From: a virus
Lineage: Duplodnaviria; Heunggongvirae; Uroviricota; Caudoviricetes
Virus record (IMG/VR): IMGVR_UViG_2681813268_000014
Location: 1 to 6,873 of that record
Length of the DNA: 6,873 nucleotides
Reading direction: 5' to 3' (one strand)
Shown here: piece by piece, positions 1 through 6,873 of the stretch
How the letters are laid out: every line of letters starts with the position of its first letter
How positions within the stretch are numbered: position 1 is the first letter of the stretch
Translations under genes and position numbers: made by a program
The notes under the pieces: generated by a model
What the model was told of the DNA's origin: nothing
Databases searched by the model: none
The model's input: the letters and a program-made list of their open reading frames with translations, nothing else

Positions 1-1
1 T

Positions 2-148
2 AGTATTAAGACTATCACTTATTTAAGTGATACTGGTTGTCTGGAGATTCAGGGGGCCAGTCTACGGACATTTTCTGCCTGTGGACCAGGAAAGTGCACG
101 GGTGCTTTCCACTCCCATGAAGCCCGGCAATCCGCGCAGATACAGTAA
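2..148 (+). CDS. 3'-terminal fragment of an upstream phage gene (5' end outside window); function unknown
   Basis: Frame 2 is open from the window edge to TAA at 146-148 (...SACGPGKCTGAFHSHEARQSAQIQ*). Same orientation as and 36 bp upstream of the rusA-Q operon. Absent from the ORF track because it has no in-window start. Confidence 0.3.
   Translation, partial: SIKTITYLSDTGCLEIQGASLRTFSACGPGKCTGAFHSHEARQSAQIQ
13..32. repeat. Perfect 9-bp inverted repeat TATCACTTA-tt-TAAGTGATA (possible protein-binding palindrome)
   Basis: Read directly from sequence; the arms are exact reverse complements with a 2-bp spacer. The TATCAC half-site resembles lambdoid operator half-sites. Lies inside the putative upstream coding fragment. 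Confidence 0.35.
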
Positions 149-184
149 TAAACGAACTGACAGCAGTAAGATGGAGCGTTTCTT

Positions 185-442
185 TTGAACAACCAGACAA
201 TGACTTTTACCCCTGAACAATTGCGTAAACACGCGCAGGAAATGCTGCGTCATGCTGAACAACTCGAAAAAACGGGCATAACAAAAGACGCTATCCGTAA
301 AGATATGGTACCCGCGCTTCGGGAACTGATGCAGGCGAAGCATCGCGCACAGAAAGCAGTAGATGAGCTGGTGGACTGTGTGGCAGAGCTGGAAACCAGA
401 GTCGGAAAGTTTGAAAAACTGGTGCAGGAGGTGCTGCGCTGA
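185..442 (+). CDS. Hypothetical small phage protein (85 aa, charged, helix-rich), first gene of the rusA-Q operon
   Basis: ORF 185..442 with TTG start and GGAG 7 nt upstream (alternative ATG at 200). Stop TGA overlaps the rusA ATG (ATGA at 442-445 region), indicating translational coupling. Confidence 0.55.
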   Translation: MNNQTMTFTPEQLRKHAQEMLRHAEQLEKTGITKDAIRKDMVPALRELMQAKHRAQKAVDELVDCVAELETRVGKFEKLVQEVLR

Positions 443-816
443 TGCGCCATGAGTTTATTTTACCTTATCCGCCGACGGTGAATACTTACTGGCGACGTCG
501 TGACAACACATATTTTGTATCAAAAGCCGGTGAGCGTTATCGCCGGGATGTGGCGCTTATTGTCCGTCAGCAGCGACTGAAATTAAGCCTGTCCGGAAGA
601 CTGGCGATAAAGATTATTGCAGAGCCACCGGATAAGCGCCGTCGTGACCTGGACAATATCCTGAAAGCACCACTGGATGCACTGACACATGCGGGAGTGT
701 TAATGGACGATGAGCAGTTTGATGAAATCAATATCGTTCGTGGTCAGCCAGTATCTGGTGGACGTCTGGGGGTGAAGATTTACCCCATAATGCATGAAGA
801 GCAGGTCAAAAAATGA
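442..816 (+). CDS. rusA: RusA-family crossover junction endodeoxyribonuclease (Holliday junction resolvase)
   Basis: 124-aa product with the RusA signatures LPYPPTVNTYWRRR and DKRRRDLDNILKAPLDALTHAGVLMDDEQ, closely matching E. coli RusA (LPWPPSNNRYYR ... [27 protein letters not shown]) as recalled from memory. Conserved lambdoid position just upstream of Q. Confidence 0.9.
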   Translation: MRHEFILPYPPTVNTYWRRRDNTYFVSKAGERYRRDVALIVRQQRLKLSLSGRLAIKIIAEPPDKRRRDLDNILKAPLDALTHAGVLMDDEQFDEINIVRGQPVSGGRLGVKIYPIMHEEQVKK

Positions 817-1667
817 AACTGGAAGATTTACCGAAATACTACTCCCCAAAATCCCCTTGCCTGACCGATGCATCGGCCTCAACGTCAAAAGATGCGCTGA
901 GTATCACTGATGTGATGGCCGCGCAGGGCATGACACAGAATCGGGCTGAGATGGGGTTTTCTGCGTTCCTGGGGAAAATGGGCATCAGTATGAATGACAG
1001 GGCGCGGGCAACAGAATTACTGGCAGATTATGCACTCAGTCGGTGCGATCGTGTGGCGGCGTTGAGAAAACTTCCGGCAGAAATAAAACCGGTAGTGATG
1101 CGCATTATGGCTTCGTACGCTTTTGAGGATTATGCCCGCAGCGCAGCGAGTAAAAAGCAGTGCCCTTGTTGCTATGGGGAAAAATTTATTGAAAGCGTAG
1201 TTTTTACAAACAAGGTCCAGTATCCGGATGGTAAGCCGCCGGTATGGGCAAAGTGTACGAAAGGTGTGTATCCGTCTTACTGGGAAGAATGGAAAAAAGT
1301 CAGGGAGGTGGTAAAAGTTGCCTGTCCGGAGTGTGGCGGAAAGGGTGAGGTTTCCACCGCCTGTAAGGATTGCCGTGGGCGTGGTGTCGCCATTCATCGT
1401 GAAGAGTCGGTAAAACGTGGTATGCCTGTTATCAGAGACTGCCAGCGTTGTGGTGGTCGTGGCTATGAAAGACTACCATCAACGGAGGCATTTAATGCTA
1501 TATGCGAGGTGACAAACCAGATAACACGCGCGTCATGGGAAAAAACAGTTAAGAAATTCTATGATGCGCTGGTGACTCGGTTTGATATTGAAGAAGCATG
1601 GGCTGAGCGGCAGTTAAAAAAGGTAACTAGGTTGATTTTTCCGGAATCTGTGGTAAATTCGTCATAA
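813..1667 (+). CDS. Late-gene antitermination protein Q-like, large zinc-finger variant
   Basis: 284-aa ORF whose ATG overlaps the rusA stop (ATGA). Contains three DnaJ-like CxxCxGxG motifs (CPECGGKG, CKDCRGRG, CQRCGGRG) plus additional CxxC. Position between rusA and the pR'/tR'/tRNA block is the canonical Q position; family assignment rests on synteny and motifs, not a homology search. Confidence 0.65.
   Translation: MKLEDLPKYYSPKSPCLTDASASTSKDALSITDVMAAQGMTQNRAEMGFSAFLGKMGISMNDRARATELLADYALSRCDRVAALRKLPAEIKPVVMRIMASYAFEDYARSAASKKQCPCCYGEKFIESVVFTNKVQYPDGKPPVWAKCTKGVYPSYWEEWKKVREVVKVACPECGGKGEVSTACKDCRGRGVAIHREESVKRGMPVIRDCQRCGGRGYERLPSTEAFNAICEVTNQITRASWEKTVKKFYDALVTRFDIEEAWAERQLKKVTRLIFPESVVNSS
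1632..1659 (+). promoter_or_regulatory. Candidate late promoter pR' (-35 TTGATT, 16-bp spacer, -10 TAAATT) overlapping the 3' end of Q
   Basis: Sigma70-like hexamers read from sequence, predicted start near 1666-1668. Placement directly after Q and before an intrinsic terminator matches lambdoid pR'/qut architecture. Confidence 0.4.
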
Positions 1668-1731
1668 CTATGGGCGTTTTATGCCTGACGTTAGAAGAGT
1701 TTCTACAACCCGCCGCCGAGCGGGTTTTTTA
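1667..1731 (+). ncRNA. Short pR'-to-tR' terminated transcript (6S-like/StxS-like late leader RNA), predicted ~65 nt
   Basis: Inferred from the predicted pR' start and the intrinsic terminator at 1708-1733. Early-terminated pR' transcripts are known sRNAs in lambdoid and Stx phages. Ends not mapped. Confidence 0.3.
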
Positions 1732-1733
1732 TT
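1708..1733 (+). terminator. Rho-independent terminator tR' (stem ACCCGC/GCGGGT, 6-nt loop, T6 tract)
   Basis: GC-rich hairpin aACCCGCcgccgaGCGGGT followed by TTTTTTATT, read directly from sequence, ~45 bp downstream of the Q stop. Confidence 0.65.
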
Positions 1734-1769
1734 GCGGAATTAATTACGGACCGTTATTATTCTGCTCCC

Positions 1770-1845
1770 GGCCCTTTAGCTCAGTGGTGAGAGCGAGCGA
1801 CTCATAATCGCCAGGTCGCTGGTTCAAATCCAGCAAGGGCCACCA
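1770..1845 (+). tRNA. ileZ: tRNA-Ile2 (anticodon CAU, lysidine-type, reads AUA); phage-borne ileZ-like
   Basis: 76-nt cloverleaf folded by hand: acceptor GGCCCTT/AAGGGCC, D-stem GCTC/GAGC, anticodon loop CTCATAA, T-arm GCTGG-TTCAAAT-CCAGC, discriminator A, encoded CCA. Near-identical in architecture to E. coli ileX, including the C4-G69/C5-G68 acceptor pairs. Confidence 0.88.
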
Positions 1846-1945
1846 TCACAAACCGCCATTAGCTTATCAGGAAGAGCAGACGACACGATAACAGGGTTGT
1901 TGGTGCGGGGGCGGGTCCCCGATGGCGGTCCATTATCGGTATTCA

Positions 1946-2022
1946 GCGTTGTTAGCTCAGCCGGACAGAGCAATTGCCTTCTAAGCAATCGGTCACTGGT
2001 TCGAATCCAGTACAGCGCGCCA
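1946..2022 (+). tRNA. tRNA-Arg (anticodon UCU, reads AGA); phage-borne argN/argO-like
   Basis: 77-nt cloverleaf folded by hand: acceptor GCGTTGT/ACAGCGC (one G-U pair), D-stem GCTC/GAGC, anticodon stem ATTGC/GCAAT with loop CTTCTAA, T-arm ACTGG-TTCGAAT-CCAGT, discriminator G, encoded CCA. Confidence 0.85.
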
Positions 2023-2132
2023 TATTCATTCTTCCAGATTCCTTCCGGCAGAGCCTTATACTGAAATATACCTGGCTCAGGATATTGTTGAAAATATTTT
2101 ATGTTTGTCAAAAATAAAAGTTCTGTTAAGTA

Positions 2133-2486
2133 TTGATTGAGTGTTTGTTATACGGTCTAATGGTTTTTTCAGCATTAAATATTTATCATTCATATGGTGT
2201 GGGTAGAGTGAATATTGATGAGGCGTCGGGGTGTTTCATCCTTAGGCAGCGTATTGATATAGTCAATGCAGCACGAGCAAAGGCCTTCAGCCGTTTGACA
2301 GTTTTGTTCTGTACTCCTGATCGTCTTTCGGGAAGAGACGTTATTATTCTGAATAGTGATGCTATACAGAGGGTTTGCGATGAGTTCATGGTTGCTAATT
2401 CAGAATTATTTGCTCTTGTTCAGGAGTACAACAGAATAGCCAGGACCTGTGGTATGGATGAACTTCGGATTACTCATCTGGGGTAG
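2133..2486 (+). CDS. Hypothetical cargo protein (117 aa from TTG, ~108 aa from ATG at 2160), no recognisable family
   Basis: Longest ORF in the segment immediately downstream of the phage tRNAs, in late-transcript orientation. No strong Shine-Dalgarno sequence; no motif I recognise. Confidence 0.4.
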   Translation: MIECLLYGLMVFSALNIYHSYGVGRVNIDEASGCFILRQRIDIVNAARAKAFSRLTVLFCTPDRLSGRDVIILNSDAIQRVCDEFMVANSELFALVQEYNRIARTCGMDELRITHLG

Positions 2487-2589
2487 ATACATATCTGGAT
2501 TATCACCTGTTACGGTAAAAAGTGATTGCTTACTGTTTTTGTGAATGGCATTGCAGCAGCCGGATAATGTCAGTGCTGGCTGACGGTGT

Positions 2590-2597
2590 GCTGGTGG
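2590..2597 (+). other. Chi site (5'-GCTGGTGG-3')
   Basis: Exact octamer match read from sequence; the only Chi octamer I found on the + strand of this window. Confidence 0.6.
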
Positions 2598-2689
2598 CGG
2601 GTGTGGTGGTTGTTGCTTTCCCGTTGCTGAAAAAGAAAACGCCAGACTGTTAGCCGGGTATCAGTTAGCGGGAGAAATTTTTAAATACT

Positions 2690-2976
2690 TCACAATTCAG
2701 GCGGTTGACTGTTGTCTGGTTTGCGGGGAGTTTGTTAAAAGAAACTGGCATGGTGAATCCCCCTGTGCGGAGGGGCAATCAGCGAGTAGGTATATGGGAT
2801 AATCGCGGATTCAGGTGCTGGTACTGAATTCACCGGGAGGCACCCGGCATCATGCAATGGCACATAGCGCCACTCTCCAGCCCTCTCCGGAGGGGCTTTT
2901 CTGTGCCGGATACATCACAGTTTCTGGAACCTTAGGTACTACAGTATCAGTCAGGGTGCTATATTTTCAGATGTGA
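2690..2976 (+). repeat. Copy 1 of a duplicated structured element (candidate sRNA gene) ending in an intrinsic terminator
   Basis: 2690-2897 aligns to 4798-5006 with one substitution (T2850 vs C4958) and one 1-nt indel in a C-run. Homology resumes after a ~62-bp copy-1-specific insertion (2898-2959) through TATATT...TCAGATGTGA (to 2976). Nested hairpins are listed in the findings. Confidence 0.85.
2879..2902 (+). terminator. Intrinsic terminator at the 3' end of repeat copy 1 (AGCCCTC-tccg-GAGGGGCT + TTTTCT)
   Basis: GC-rich 7/8-bp hairpin with tetraloop followed by a U-tract on the + strand. Confidence 0.6.
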
Positions 2977-3129
2977 TGAAAGCCTGTCAGCAGGCAGGGC
3001 GTATCGGAAATGACCCAGTAGAGAAAACGTTGACTCAGATACCGGTGCTGAGTTACCGGGAAACCGGCATCACATGACCGCTATCCTGAGGTGTACTGGC
3101 AATAGCGGACACTACCATTTGTTCTTTTT

Positions 3130-3948
3130 TTAAGCAGCCATCTGATGATATTTTTCCCTGAAGGCTGCCGGGGAGATATTCCCCAGACGAGAGTGACGAC
3201 GCTGACGATTGTAGAAAATCTCAATGTATTCCCGTATTACTGAGATGGCTTCATCCCGGTTATTAAAACGATAGTGGCTCAGGCTCTCATTTTTCAGCGT
3301 TCCCCAGAAGCTTTCCATCGGAGCGTTGTCGTAACAGTTACCTTTACGCGACATTGATGTTTTCAGACCAGACTGCTCCTGTATGACCCGGTAATCGTAT
3401 GCGCAGTACTGTGAACCTCGATCAGAGTGGTGGATTAGCCCGGCAGGTGGGCGCTGGCTCCTGAGCGCCATAAACAGGGCTTTACCTGTCAGCTCTTTTG
3501 TCATGCGCTCTCCCATGGCGTAGCCGACAATTTCGCACGTATAAACATCTTTGATGCCAGCGAGGTACAACCATCCCTCCTGTGTGGCAACATACGTCAG
3601 GTCCGCCACCCAGACCTGATTTGGTGCTGTAGGAGCGAACGTCTGGTTCAGCAGATTTGGCGCAACTGGCAGATTGTGGTTCGAGTTCGTAGTCGCTCTG
3701 AACTTGCGTTTCTGCTTACAGCGTAGCCTTAGCTCCTTACGAAGACGTGCCAGTCGGTCACGACCAACGATGATGCCATTCTCTGCCAGCTCCGTCTGGA
3801 GCCGCCGGGTTCCATATGTTTCGCGAGTGCGGATATGTGCCACCTTAATCTCCAGTTTTAGCCGCTCATCACTTTGTTTTCTGTCTGAGGGTTCATGCTG
3901 TACCCAGTTGTAATAACCGCTCCTGGATACACCAAATACCTGACACAT
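3130..3948 (-). CDS. IS3-family transposase OrfB (DDE integrase-like catalytic domain), expressed as an OrfAB fusion by -1 frameshift
   Basis: 272-aa ORF from the first ATG; the same frame stays open upstream to the slippery site near 4029-4035. Contains characteristic IS3-family OrfB segments (HHSDRGSQY..., KGNCYDNAPMESFWGTLKNE). Confidence 0.9.
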   Translation of the reverse strand: MCQVFGVSRSGYYNWVQHEPSDRKQSDERLKLEIKVAHIRTRETYGTRRLQTELAENGIIVGRDRLARLRKELRLRCKQKRKFRATTNSNHNLPVAPNLLNQTFAPTAPNQVWVADLTYVATQEGWLYLAGIKDVYTCEIVGYAMGERMTKELTGKALFMALRSQRPPAGLIHHSDRGSQYCAYDYRVIQEQSGLKTSMSRKGNCYDNAPMESFWGTLKNESLSHYRFNNRDEAISVIREYIEIFYNRQRRHSRLGNISPAAFREKYHQMAA

Positions 3949-3983
3949 CGCTTCAATGGGAAATTGTTGTCGCCATTGTTCGA

Positions 3984-4286
3984 TTAACGCGTATTTTTCA
4001 GCGACTCCTGTGCAAAATACGCTGTTGCTTTTTTTAATATATCTCGCTCAAGTCGTGCTTCATTTAAAGCCTTACGCAGTTGCATAACTTCAGATTCCAG
4101 CTCAGCCACTGTGCGGGAGCCTGGTGTATTGAGCCCTTTTCTTGCGGCGGTAACCCATTGTCCTAAAGTGCCTTCAGGAAGAGATAATCGGGAAGCGCCT
4201 TCACTGATCGAAAGTTGATTTTCAGGAACCGTTTTGACGGCTTCGGCTTTAAACTCCGTAGAGTAACGTTGGGTTTTTCTGCTCAT
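3984..4286 (-). CDS. IS3-family transposase OrfA (helix-turn-helix / leucine-zipper DNA-binding protein)
   Basis: 100-aa ORF with AAGGAG Shine-Dalgarno 7 nt upstream of the ATG. Sequence MSRKTQRYSTEFKAEAV...LERDILKKATAYFAQESL is typical of IS3-group OrfA and closely matches what I recall of IS600 OrfA. Confidence 0.9.
   Translation of the reverse strand: MSRKTQRYSTEFKAEAVKTVPENQLSISEGASRLSLPEGTLGQWVTAARKGLNTPGSRTVAELESEVMQLRKALNEARLERDILKKATAYFAQESLKNTR
4029..4035 (-). other. Programmed -1 ribosomal frameshift site A_AAA_AAA linking orfA to orfB
   Basis: T7 run on the + strand equals A7 on the coding strand, positioned in the orfA zero frame as TTA-AAA-AAA-GCA (L-K-K-A). The orfB frame is exactly -1 relative to orfA (coordinate arithmetic from the stops at 3984 and 3130). 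Confidence 0.75.
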
Positions 4287-4797
4287 TATTGGCTCCTTCT
4301 GATGCCATTCTATTTCAGGAAGGAGTGTCCGTTAAACTCAGGCTACCTCACTCCCGTAAAGACGGGAGTCAAGTTCCCGCTCCGACATAACTGCGTGCAA
4401 TGGATTTTGAAGGAACCGTCAGCCCATTCCCCGGAGGCAAACATGGGCTGGCAAAAGTGTAGCGGTATTAGGCACAGCTATTTAGGAAAGAGGGACCATC
4501 TCCATCTCATTAAATGGACCACGCCAGACAATTCACTGTCATGCTGATGCTGCACTGTGGGGACAGAATCACTCATGATGACTTCGATAATCGACGACAT
4601 TATTATTTGGCCGAGCTTTTAGGTCATATCTCAAATCGTTTGCCTAATATTGCTCCATTTTTTAATAAAAAATCAATCATTTTTGAATCTTTGCTTTTCA
4701 TTGCATTGTCAAGCATAGTGTCCCCACTATTTGCTTTTTGAAATTTTTTGTTTACATCAACCAATCCATTATTGATAAAATATTCTAGCACTTTATA

Positions 4798-5032
4798 TCA
4801 CAATTCAGGCGGTTGACTGTTGTCTGGTTTGCGGGGAGTTTGTTAAAAGAAACTGGCATGGTGAATCCCCCTGTGCGGAGGGGCAATCAGCGAGTAGGTA
4901 TATGGGATAATCGCGGATTCAGGTGCTGGTACTGAATTCACCGGGAGGCACCCGGCACCATGCAATGGCACATAGCGCCACTCTCCAGCCCCTCTCCGGA
5001 GGGGCTGTTTATATTGATTTTGTCAGATGTGA
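4798..5032 (+). repeat. Copy 2 of the duplicated structured element (candidate sRNA gene) ending in an intrinsic terminator
   Basis: Aligns to copy 1 at ~99% identity over ~209 bp with a tail match (TATATT...AGATGTGA). A promoter-like TTGATA-N16-TATATC lies at 4772-4799, immediately upstream. Confidence 0.85.
4987..5015 (+). terminator. Intrinsic terminator at the 3' end of repeat copy 2 (AGCCCCTC-tccg-GAGGGGCT + GTTTATATT)
   Basis: Perfect 8-bp GC-rich hairpin with tetraloop followed by a T-rich tract, read from sequence. Confidence 0.55.
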
Positions 5033-5041
5033 GTAAACTCC

Positions 5042-5377
5042 TTATGGACTTTGTTGTTTTAGCCCATAAGGACATATTTGCAGAGTGCAACGGTTATTAA
5101 AGCATTCATTCAATACGTTATCTGTATTTGTAGGGCATTCCTGGCTGTTTTTGATTAAATTCCAGAATGTTTTATTGAATGGTACTACGTTGTAAATGGT
5201 TACAGGTAGCACTTTGTTATTGAGCATGATGCCTGTGTGAGTCAGTGTAAATATACTTTCAGGAGGTAAGAAAGCATCCGATTGATACCAGATTATTAAT
5301 TTTATTTTACTCCATATGACTGAAAAAGATATTCCGCATGATGGCTGGATAACTGTATCAATCACAATCCACTTCAT
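5042..5377 (-). CDS. Hypothetical Cys-rich small protein (111 aa) encoded antisense to the late operon in AT-rich cargo DNA
   Basis: ATG preceded by AAGGAA Shine-Dalgarno at 5-6 nt spacing (coding strand AAACAAGGAAACTAA-ATG). Six cysteines, six AUA codons. Ends 5 bp from the repeat-2 homology tail and 27 bp from its terminator. No family recognised. Confidence 0.4.
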
Positions 5378-5637
5378 TTAGTTTCCTTGTTTATGCCTTG
5401 CTGGTGATGTTCTGAAAAGTATAAATGATATTTTTGATTGTAAACCATAGAGCAGAATTATTTTTCTGATGTTGTTTATTGTTTATTTAAATGCAGGGTG
5501 GTTTATATCTCGTCTTGTAGTTTATCCATGCATATCTGCTTGATGATGAGGTTTTTATTTAAGGTATGGTTTTGTGTTTTTTCTGTATTACATGTCAGGT
5601 ATTTTAAAGAATCATTTTTCAGATGGTGGAAAGAACC

Positions 5638-6873
5638 ATGGCATTTAAACACTATGATGTTGTCAGGGCGGCGTCGCCGTCAGATCTTGCGGAAAAGCTG
5701 ACACATAAACTGAAAGAGGGCTGGCAGCCGTTTGGTAGTCCGGTGGCCATAACCCCTTATACCCTGATGCAGGCGATTGCAGCAGAAGGTGATGTGGTCG
5801 TCAGTGGTGCAACTGAGCCGGAGTGGTACTACGTCATCGTACTGGCCGGGCAGTCCAATGCCATGGCTTACGGTGAAGGGCTTCCGCTTCCGGATTCATA
5901 CGATGCGCCCCATCCGCGCATTAAGCAACTGGCCCGTCGTAACACAGTGACTCCCGGTGGTGAAGTATGCGTATTTAACGACATCATTCCTGCTGACCAT
6001 TGTCTGCATGATGTTCAGGATATGAGTACGATTAACCATCCCCGGGCTGACCTGAGCAAAGGGCAGTACGGCTGTGTCGGACAGGGCTTACATATTGCCA
6101 AAAAACTGCTTCCGTATATCCCTAATAATGCGGGGATCCTGCTGGTACCATGCTGTCGTGGTGGTTCGGCATTCACCCAGGGCACGGAGGGGACATTCAG
6201 CGAGTCCACGGGAGCCAGTCAGGATTCGGCTCGCTGGGGAGTGGGTAAGCCGTTATATCAGGATCTGCTTTTCCGCACGAAGGCAGCATTGCAGAAAAAC
6301 CCGAAAAACGTTTTGCTGGCGATATGCTGGATGCAGGGGGAATTCGATATGACGAATGCCAGTTACGCCCAGCAGCCAGCAGCATTTCTTGCAATGGTAC
6401 AGCAGTTCCGTGCTGACCTTGCCGGGCTGGCAGCGCAGTGTCACGGTGGAAGTCCGGCATCAGTCCCCTGGATTTGTGGCGACACGACATACGCGTGGAA
6501 ACAAGAACACGGTACGCAATATGAAGTGGTATATGGTGCATATAAAGGTAAAGAATCCCAGCAGATTTATTTTGTTCCCTTTATGACCGATGGTAGCGGA
6601 GTTAATACACCGACAAACAACCCGTCAGAAGATCCTGATATTGCCGGGTCTGGTTATTACGGTTCGGCATCCCGAACGAACAAAAACTGGGTATCATCAA
6701 ATCGCCCGACGCATTTCAGCTCATGGGCGCGTCGTGGCATTATTCCCGATCGTATGGCAACTGCTATTCTGAACGTAGCCGGTCGCACCTTAGCCTTCAT
6801 TAGTGGTAAGGCACCGGAAATCAAACCCTCGCCCGGCGGCGACACGCCATCGGGGCCGTCTGAAGATGCATCC
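5638..6873 (+). CDS. nanS-p: Prophage sialate O-acetylesterase (NanS-p-like; N-terminal DUF1737-like region plus SGNH/SASA esterase domain), 3' end beyond window
   Basis: Uninterrupted 412-codon frame from ATG 5638 to the window edge; missing from the ORF track because there is no in-window stop. Contains the esterase motif GQSNAMAYGEG. Occupies the conserved position between the stx/cargo slot and the lysis genes in Stx-type prophages. Confidence 0.82.
   Translation, partial: MAFKHYDVVRAASPSDLAEKLTHKLKEGWQPFGSPVAITPYTLMQAIAAEGDVVVSGATEPEWYYVIVLAGQSNAMAYGEGLPLPDSYDAPHPRIKQLARRNTVTPGGEVCVFNDIIPADHCLHDVQDMSTINHPRADLSKGQYGCVGQGLHIAKKLLPYIPNNAGILLVPCCRGGSAFTQGTEGTFSESTGASQDSARWGVGKPLYQDLLFRTKAALQKNPKNVLLAICWMQGEFDMTNASYAQQPAAFLAMVQQFRADLAGLAAQCHGGSPASVPWICGDTTYAWKQEHGTQYEVVYGAYKGKESQQIYFVPFMTDGSGVNTPTNNPSEDPDIAGSGYYGSASRTNKNWVSSNRPTHFSSWARRGIIPDRMATAILNVAGRTLAFISGKAPEIKPSPGGDTPSGPSEDAS

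Follow-up and report, generated by a model that had tools for sequence, protein, structure and literature searches.

An IS600 copy with a prophage flank and a plasmid flank in a defective lambdoid prophage

The locus

The stretch of DNA analysed here (hereafter, the window), positions 1 to 6,873 of the IMG/VR virus record IMGVR_UViG_2681813268_000014, 6,873 nucleotides (nt) in length, is the late-regulatory region of a defective lambdoid prophage and contains, between two nearly identical direct repeats, a complete copy of the insertion sequence (IS) IS600. IS600, first described in Shigella sonnei, is a member of the IS3 family which moves by the copy-out-paste-in pathway, encodes a -1 frameshifted OrfAB transposase and normally duplicates 3 bp of its target. 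The copy in the window shows no such duplication, the flanking triplets being TCC on the left and CTC on the right, and the original prediction, made from the sequence alone, offered two explanations, namely, that the right boundary had been placed one nucleotide off or that the element had arrived or been rearranged by recombination rather than by simple transposition. The following features bear directly on this choice (pINV is the virulence plasmid of Shigella and of enteroinvasive Escherichia coli, EIEC, that carries the effector gene ospC4).

2690-2897, plus strand: direct repeat R1, a gene for a small RNA (sRNA) of the STnc100 family, with its terminator hairpin at 2879-2897
2898-3086, plus strand: segment B, prophage DNA of native origin that forms the body of the degenerate, STnc100-like middle unit
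3087-4350, minus strand: complete IS600 (IS3 family), 1264 bp, delimited by full-length alignment to annotated IS600 copies
3130-3948, minus strand: orfB frame, open over its full length, with the DDE/rve catalytic domain
3984-4286, minus strand: orfA, 100 amino acids (aa), HTH_Tnp_1
4029-4035, minus strand: slippery heptamer A AAA AAA, the -1 frameshift site
3087-4011, minus strand: canonical-IS600 tract, with the canonical base at 65 of 66 informative sites
4012-4052: crossover interval, 41 nt identical in both parents, which holds the frameshift site
4053-4350, minus strand: pINV-isoform tract, with the pINV base at 20 of 22 informative sites (4053-4291)
4351-4623: pINV-derived spacer, 273 nt, between IS600 and the ospC4 stop codon, 100% identical to plasmid NZ_CP011417
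4624-4797, minus strand: fragment of the type III effector gene ospC4, 174 nt, comprising the last 57 codons and the stop codon of a 484-aa gene
4797-4798: blunt illegitimate joint of the ospC4 fragment to R2
4798-5006, plus strand: direct repeat R2, an STnc100-family sRNA gene of consensus sequence, with its terminator at 4986-5007

The element and its boundaries

The identity of the element is straightforward. In 1614 of the 5426 complete E. coli genomes, positions 3087-4350 align from 1 to 1264 with elements that bear the RefSeq annotation 'IS3-like element IS600 family transposase', typically with 98.3% identity and at best with 99.4%, so that the alignment to reference copies fixes the ends at 3087 and 4350 and bears out the family and the length that had been proposed. 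The ends read TGAGGT...ACCTCA and form imperfect terminal inverted repeats of the TG...CA type, with the right repeat (IRR) at 3087-3113, TGAGGTGTACTGGCAATAGCGGACACT, and the left repeat (IRL) at 4324-4350, TGAGGTAGCCTGAGTTTAACGGACACT; a promoter-like site lies within the IRL, and orfA is preceded by the ribosome-binding site AAGGAG with a 6-nt spacer. The -1 fusion at the heptamer would yield an OrfAB protein of 385 aa, equal in length in the canonical, pINV and EIEC copies, and the canonical copies are annotated with a 'programmed frameshift'. This protein matches the full profile NF033516 ('IS3 family transposase') with 412 bits, against a cut-off of 160, as well as the Pfam domains HTH_Tnp_1, HTH_21, rve (89.7 bits), rve_3 and rve_2.

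Thus, in its size, its ends, the arrangement of orfA and orfB with the A AAA AAA(G) -1 frameshift, the 385-aa OrfAB with HTH and DDE (rve) domains and the typical identity of 98.3%, the window copy is like the known IS600; it differs in being composed of two parts of different parentage and in the absence of a target duplication. Every item that the original prediction listed, from the inverted repeats and the orfA ribosome-binding site to the slippery site and the full-length orfB frame, is present. Since both canonical ends and an intact OrfAB are kept, the element is probably still mobile; the earlier remark that it looks functional stands, with the intact OrfAB, the domains and the ends in its favour, as a statement at the level of sequence.

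The possibility that this is a simple transposition, with the duplication masked by an off-by-one error at the right boundary, draws on the presence of a TCC one base further in, at 4352-4354. The 1264-nt ends agree with those of perfectly duplicated copies, such as the copies flanked by ATG on both sides in two other records (L001 and L005), and with thousands of full-length alignments. Because copies with identical ends carry perfect 3-bp duplications elsewhere, the boundaries have to be considered exact and the TCC/CTC pair a true lack of duplication. Furthermore, the sequence CTCCCG that follows the element is conserved pINV sequence adjoining IS600, so that the TCC within it is a coincidence, and, after TCC, the native prophage site continues with TTCCAGG whereas the window has CGTAAAG. 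The shifted boundary is already refuted by these observations, and we assign it practically no probability. The absence of the duplication is secondary, a result of recombination, and does not count against the membership of the element in IS600 and the IS3 family.

Two flanks from two replicons

The two flanks of the element come from different replicons. The left flank (2901-3086) shares 99.5% identity with sites that are uninterrupted in many E. coli prophages and that answer to the empty sites that the original prediction proposed to look for; these sites read GCTATCC followed by TTCCAGGCCC (that is, TTCCAGG after TCC), and in E. coli 042, GCTATCC is followed by TTCCAGGCCCATCC... In the window, IS600 cuts off segment B from its terminator, which belongs to the segment denoted B'. 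The right flank, in its entirety (4351-4797, 447 nt), is 100% identical to the 3' end of ospC4 and the downstream spacer in the EIEC plasmid NZ_CP011417, where an IS600-type element abuts this sequence at the identical junction, ACCTCA followed by CTCCCG. The whole block of the IS and ospC4 sequence (3086-4797) is conserved on the pINV plasmids of S. sonnei, S. boydii, S. dysenteriae, S. flexneri and EIEC; the left flank of the pINV copy reads ...CCCAGAAC. The ospC4 fragment aligns with positions 241-292 of the 292-position Pfam profile Shigella_OspC (91.8 bits), so that the right flank lacks a complete OspC effector gene, and the fragment is a dead remnant. When the left and right flanks were joined and used as a single query, no record was found to cover both.

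The change of replicon is accompanied by a change of parentage within the IS itself. The pINV copy of IS600 beside ospC4 is an isoform that is 93% identical to canonical IS600, and 88 positions distinguish the two. In the window copy, the canonical allele prevails up to the last canonical-type informative site at 4011, and the pINV allele prevails from the first pINV-type site at 4053 onwards, a split that is highly significant (Fisher p=1.5e-16). From 4012 to 4797, there is a single mismatch in 786 nt against three pINV-type contigs (L018, L022 and L023), and the exact OrfA protein, found in 17 contigs, occurs only in pINV-type contigs, mostly beside an OspC-family gene among the 10 matches listed. 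The window copy is thus a chimera of two parents, canonical on the left and of the pINV type over the right ~300 nt, as judged from the distribution of alleles, and a 41-nt identical tract within IS copies that are 93% identical is sufficient for such an exchange.

Mosaicism of this kind is seen elsewhere. The pINV-type draft contig L022, which contains an N, carries several modules that consist of an ospC 3' end and IS600 (5490-7101, 9703-10515 and 10871-12148), and its IS copies are mosaics with differing breakpoints, for example, one between 3909 and 3935. These mosaics reflect either frequent recombination or conversion between IS600 copies on pINV or an artefact of draft assembly.

The parental insertion in relatives

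The parental state of the insertion is preserved in a related provirus. The left-junction 28-mer is present in four IMG/VR provirus contigs, and in one of these, IMGVR_UViG_2869953405_000008 (21.5 kb, rebuilt from L043 and L041), the very same nucleotide is occupied by a 1264-nt IS600 with TCC perfectly duplicated, the junctions being gctaTCC, the IS, and TCCttccaggcccatcc, followed by the sequence of the native site. This IS600 shows no differences from the window copy over 3087-4052, and at the 20 sites of 4053-4291 where the two differ, its allele is always the canonical one. Another contig (L039) is 100% identical to the window over 1736-4052 (2317 nt, including the private variants of R1) and then continues with canonical alleles. 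Because a canonical copy with the TCC duplication occupies the same nucleotide in a relative, the original event has to be an ordinary transposition, the right end having been exchanged later. Taken together, the flanks from different replicons, the chimeric IS and the duplicated parental insertion settle the choice posed at the outset in favour of recombination.

The same observations bear on the scenario under which the pINV isoform itself transposed together with 447 bp of flanking DNA, by one-ended transposition or with the use of a surrogate end, after which the left 930-970 nt were converted to the canonical sequence. It would account for the fact that the IS and its flank are contiguous exactly as they are on pINV. 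However, the left junction is nucleotide-identical to that of the older canonical insertion in the four IMG/VR contigs, one of which has the TCC duplication, and an independent insertion at the same base is unlikely; the would-be end, ...GCACTTTATA, does not finish in CA and bears no resemblance to the inverted repeat of IS600; and native prophages keep B and R2, the flanks of the resulting 1711-bp unit, apart, with the 70 nt of B' between them. We regard this scenario as highly improbable.

Some of the IMG/VR entries call for caution on their own account. The entry IMGVR_UViG_2681813267_000008 (L042) consists of three contigs joined by a single N at 2769 and at 6012, each of which ends inside an STnc100 unit or IS600, and such entries should not be taken as contiguous proviruses.

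The repeats are native sRNA genes

The direct repeats that bracket the element, at 2690-2897 and 4798-5006, are, as described in the original prediction, ~99% identical and 2.1 kb (2108 nt) apart. Both belong to the STnc100 family (Rfam RF02076), with 122.5 bits for R1 (2719-2908) and 132.4 bits for R2 (4827-5016), against a gathering threshold of 47 bits, and both cover model positions 1-206, that is, the full model. The two copies, ~208 nt each, differ by one substitution and one 1-nt indel (99.5% identity). The private changes of R1, compared to all other copies aligned, are C to T at 2853 and the loss of one C from the terminator stem (~2881); since the same variants are present in L039, they are not errors private to the window. 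STnc100 is a prophage sRNA that is related to PasD and is often found near esterase genes (bioRxiv 10.64898/2026.05.13.724894), and in keeping with this description, both repeats score far above the threshold and lie upstream of a prophage esterase gene. R2 continues directly into iraM and the SASA esterase gene, as in native prophages, and over 4798-6873 only 3 of 2076 nt set the window apart from E. coli elppa4.

Could these repeats be products of the IS event? We considered and rejected this possibility. The layout of unit, B, B' (70 nt), unit, iraM and esterase is found in 316-320 E. coli genomes, and a 1060-nt reconstruction of the window, in which the IS and plasmid patch is swapped for B', aligns colinearly over exactly 1060 nt with 88% identity. 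The tandem layout is therefore native to E. coli prophages, and the repeats, native tandem sRNA units, did not originate in the IS event; what the patch displaced was the right-hand part of the IS together with the TCC copy and B'. The middle unit of E. coli 042, with intact B and B', scores 30 bits against STnc100, below the threshold, and the IS600 target lies just upstream of the terminator of this degenerate unit. The native tandem units of E. coli prophages are ~80-92% alike compared to 99.5% for the pair in the window.

As a separate observation, E. coli 042 (L004, 3818-4495) carries three tandem STnc100-type units, with 136, 30 and 165 bits, upstream of the esterase gene, and arrays of sRNA genes look like a regular feature of this prophage family.

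Alleles with a single unit are common, in S. sonnei as well as in many E. coli. In S. sonnei, there are no differences from the window over 1-2849, the IS2 junction included, followed by one unit and then iraM, and the right arm differs from that of the window at 8 of 970 positions; conversely, in E. coli elppa4, it is the left arm that differs, at 83 positions. Because the left and right arms show such a sharp break in identity, we conclude that lambdoid phages exchanged DNA at or near STnc100 units, which appear to be exchange points between lambdoid prophages. The S. sonnei locus was also considered as a simple deletion product and rejected, given that its left arm is identical and its right arm is not. 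The original prediction held that recombination between the repeats would delete the IS together with the intervening DNA and proposed a search for relatives with a single repeat: such relatives abound, and none of the single-repeat alleles examined can be called a simple deletion product of the window structure. RecA-dependent deletion of the 2.1 kb between the two 208-nt STnc100 genes is plausible and is to be expected in principle.

The ospC4-R2 joint

The second boundary of the plasmid DNA is of an altogether different nature. At 4797-4798, the ospC4 fragment passes into R2, ...GCACTTTATA followed by TCACAATTCAGG..., with no microhomology and no IS end. This joint was not found in E. coli complete genomes, PLSDB plasmids, GTDB representatives (searched with both junction 28-30-mers), JGI metagenomes or IMG/VR. 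Exact-protein look-ups likewise did not recover it: the 55-aa OspC4 remnant is matched by one pINV contig that is cut at its end, and this is not the joint, a 75-aa open reading frame (ORF) has no match, and Q, RusA, ORF117 and IraM lead only to single-repeat loci or unrelated prophages. The idea that the R2 side is a natural cassette boundary was rejected: native units share TTAAAT... upstream of TCACAATTCAG, and, because R2 lacks this upstream sequence, the joint lies inside the conserved region.

The nature of this joint is also crucial for the suspicion that the entire structure is an assembly chimera, absent from any cell, in which the assembly entered via the prophage IS600 and exited via the pINV copy, perhaps with an additional switch between STnc100 units. 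The suspicion is not idle: all breaks in identity except one fall inside repeats (the 4012-4052 tract of IS600 and the STnc100 units); the left arm matches S. sonnei without a difference, and for the right arm the nearest sequence is that of an E. coli prophage; like many contigs, the window begins within an IS, of which it retains 64 nt; and it is in these very repeats that draft contigs of related genomes break off. The exception is the ospC4-R2 joint, which lies in unique sequence, with no k-mer shared between the two sides, so that a repeat-driven misjoin cannot make it, and at least one real plasmid-phage fusion is needed. In addition, a contig that passes unbroken through a multicopy IS of 1264 bp and through two repeats of 208 nt points to long reads or finishing. 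On balance, we consider an assembly artefact to be improbable.

The proposed history

A history in three steps, canonical transposition, recombination between IS600 copies with pINV, and an illegitimate join, probably accounts for the structure. In the first step, a canonical IS600 would have transposed into a defective lambdoid prophage and duplicated TCC, as seen in the related provirus; the target would have been between B and B' of the degenerate unit, flanked by two STnc100 genes, upstream of iraM and the esterase gene. In the second step, for which the sequence pattern is observed and the mechanism would be homologous recombination within 4012-4052 with the pINV isoform of IS600 beside ospC4, the right ~300 nt of the IS would have been replaced and pINV DNA attached. 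Because this step would exchange the right end of the IS along with its flank, it explains why the left flank is of phage origin, the right flank is of plasmid origin, and there is no duplication. The third step would be an illegitimate, blunt join between ospC4, at a point 57 codons before its end, and the STnc100 gene downstream, at the first base of the latter; the remaining plasmid sequence, the TCC copy and B' with its 70 nt would have been lost. Two routes might lead to this outcome: either recombination between IS600 copies produced a cointegrate with pINV and a large illegitimate deletion came afterwards, or the patch arose in a single step, with homology at one end and an illegitimate join at the other. 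Both routes fit the end product, which does not separate them.

The first route corresponds to the notion that the IS600-ospC4 patch is a natural scar of an integration of the whole pINV plasmid via IS600-IS600 recombination, later removed by imprecise deletion. We put this forward tentatively, as a possibility with the balance tilted against it. There is a precedent, so far from laboratory cultures, for reversible integration of the plasmid: pINV integrates into the chromosome through IS1294, pairs of IS600 copies recombine on pINV, and deletions of pINV mediated by IS600, ISSfl4 and IS1294 occur (Pilla et al., 2017, PMC5629016). The likeness consists in homologous recombination between a plasmid IS and a chromosomal IS that joins pINV to chromosomal DNA. 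The difference is that the laboratory integrations involved IS1294 and kept the whole plasmid whereas the window involves IS600, a prophage site, only 447 bp of plasmid DNA and an illegitimate second joint.

Several observations weigh against the three-step history. It is read from the assembled sequence of the window. Mosaics with other breakpoints exist in draft pINV sequence, so that part of the mosaic could predate the event or reflect gene conversion. The canonical alleles of L039 could be an artefact of short-read consensus; the 21.5-kb contig with the TCC duplication, which runs through three IS600 copies, is less open to this doubt, and yet the prophage that harbours the parental copy in that contig has the E. 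coli 042 type of upstream arm rather than the window type. Finally, the ospC4-R2 joint shows no homology and has no parallel in the collections searched, and the third step is deduced from the end product only.

Recombined flanks of IS600 do not seem to be confined to the window. In S. sonnei (L016, 10845-12108), another IS600 cuts the prophage esterase gene ~130 nt in (equivalent to ~5767 of the window); it is flanked by CCC on the left and CTA on the right, without a duplication. A duplication is likewise absent from other IS600 copies nearby in S. sonnei, where recombined flanks seem to be the rule.

Implications

What does this locus amount to? It is a known element, IS600, changed by a known process, namely, homologous recombination between IS copies of pINV and of the chromosome; a plasmid scar within a prophage is all that is mildly new here. 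On its own, the case is of little importance. It provides a worked example of why many IS copies in Shigella and EIEC lack target duplications: IS-IS recombination shuffles the flanks. The dead chromosomal fragment of ospC4 could be mistaken by annotation pipelines for a remnant of a chromosomal effector, and the two junction sequences, CATGACCGCTATCCTGAGGTGTACTGGC and TTCTAGCACTTTATATCACAATTCAGGCGG, are lineage markers. Should the plasmid have integrated as a whole, these junctions would be evidence of pINV-chromosome cointegration outside the laboratory, through a different IS, and could be used to trace the frequency of such events and the lineages in which they occur.

The prophage context

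The remaining features of the window are as follows.

1-64: the last 64 nt of an IS2-like element, the IS end at which the contig starts
between 1-64 and rusA: an ORF of 85 aa
442-816: rusA
813-1667: the Q antiterminator gene
1770-1845: tRNA(CAT)
1946-2022: tRNA-Arg(TCT)
2133-2486: a conserved ORF of 117 aa between the tRNA genes and the sRNA units
5377-5042, minus strand: iraM
from 5638: the DUF1737/SASA esterase gene

The IS end at 1-64, which we take to be IS2-like from its sequence, matches the end of an IS3-family element in another record (L003). S. sonnei genomes share this junction, with the remainder of that IS split by an IS21-type element. The 117-aa ORF at 2133-2486 has no Pfam or NCBIfam match, though it is gene-called in hundreds of assemblies.

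The order of rusA, Q, tRNA(CAT), tRNA-Arg(TCT) and the esterase gene in the window is that of phages of the Stx type, and over these parts there are matches to Stx-converting phages. Phages of the Stx type carry Q, tRNA genes, cargo, an esterase of the nanS-p type and lysis genes; unlike them, the window has no stx genes, and the prophage is defective, with the IS2-like end at 1-64. The slot that stx occupies in those phages is filled in the window by sRNA genes, iraM, IS600 and the plasmid remnant.

In phages of the Stx type, the PR'-tR' module sits directly after Q, ahead of the tRNA genes. The STnc100 repeats were considered as such a late promoter module and rejected, 1632-1726, directly after Q, being the better candidate. 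A candidate late promoter can be discerned there by eye (TTGATT at 1632-1637, a 16-nt spacer, and TAAATT at 1654-1659), and a terminator scan gives a strong terminator at 1707-1726, between Q and the tRNA genes. The Q ORF itself encodes 284 aa in the window and in S. sonnei compared to 273 aa in E. coli relatives, and an 8-nt indel near 1629, relative to FDAARGOS_944, alters the C-terminal tail of Q.

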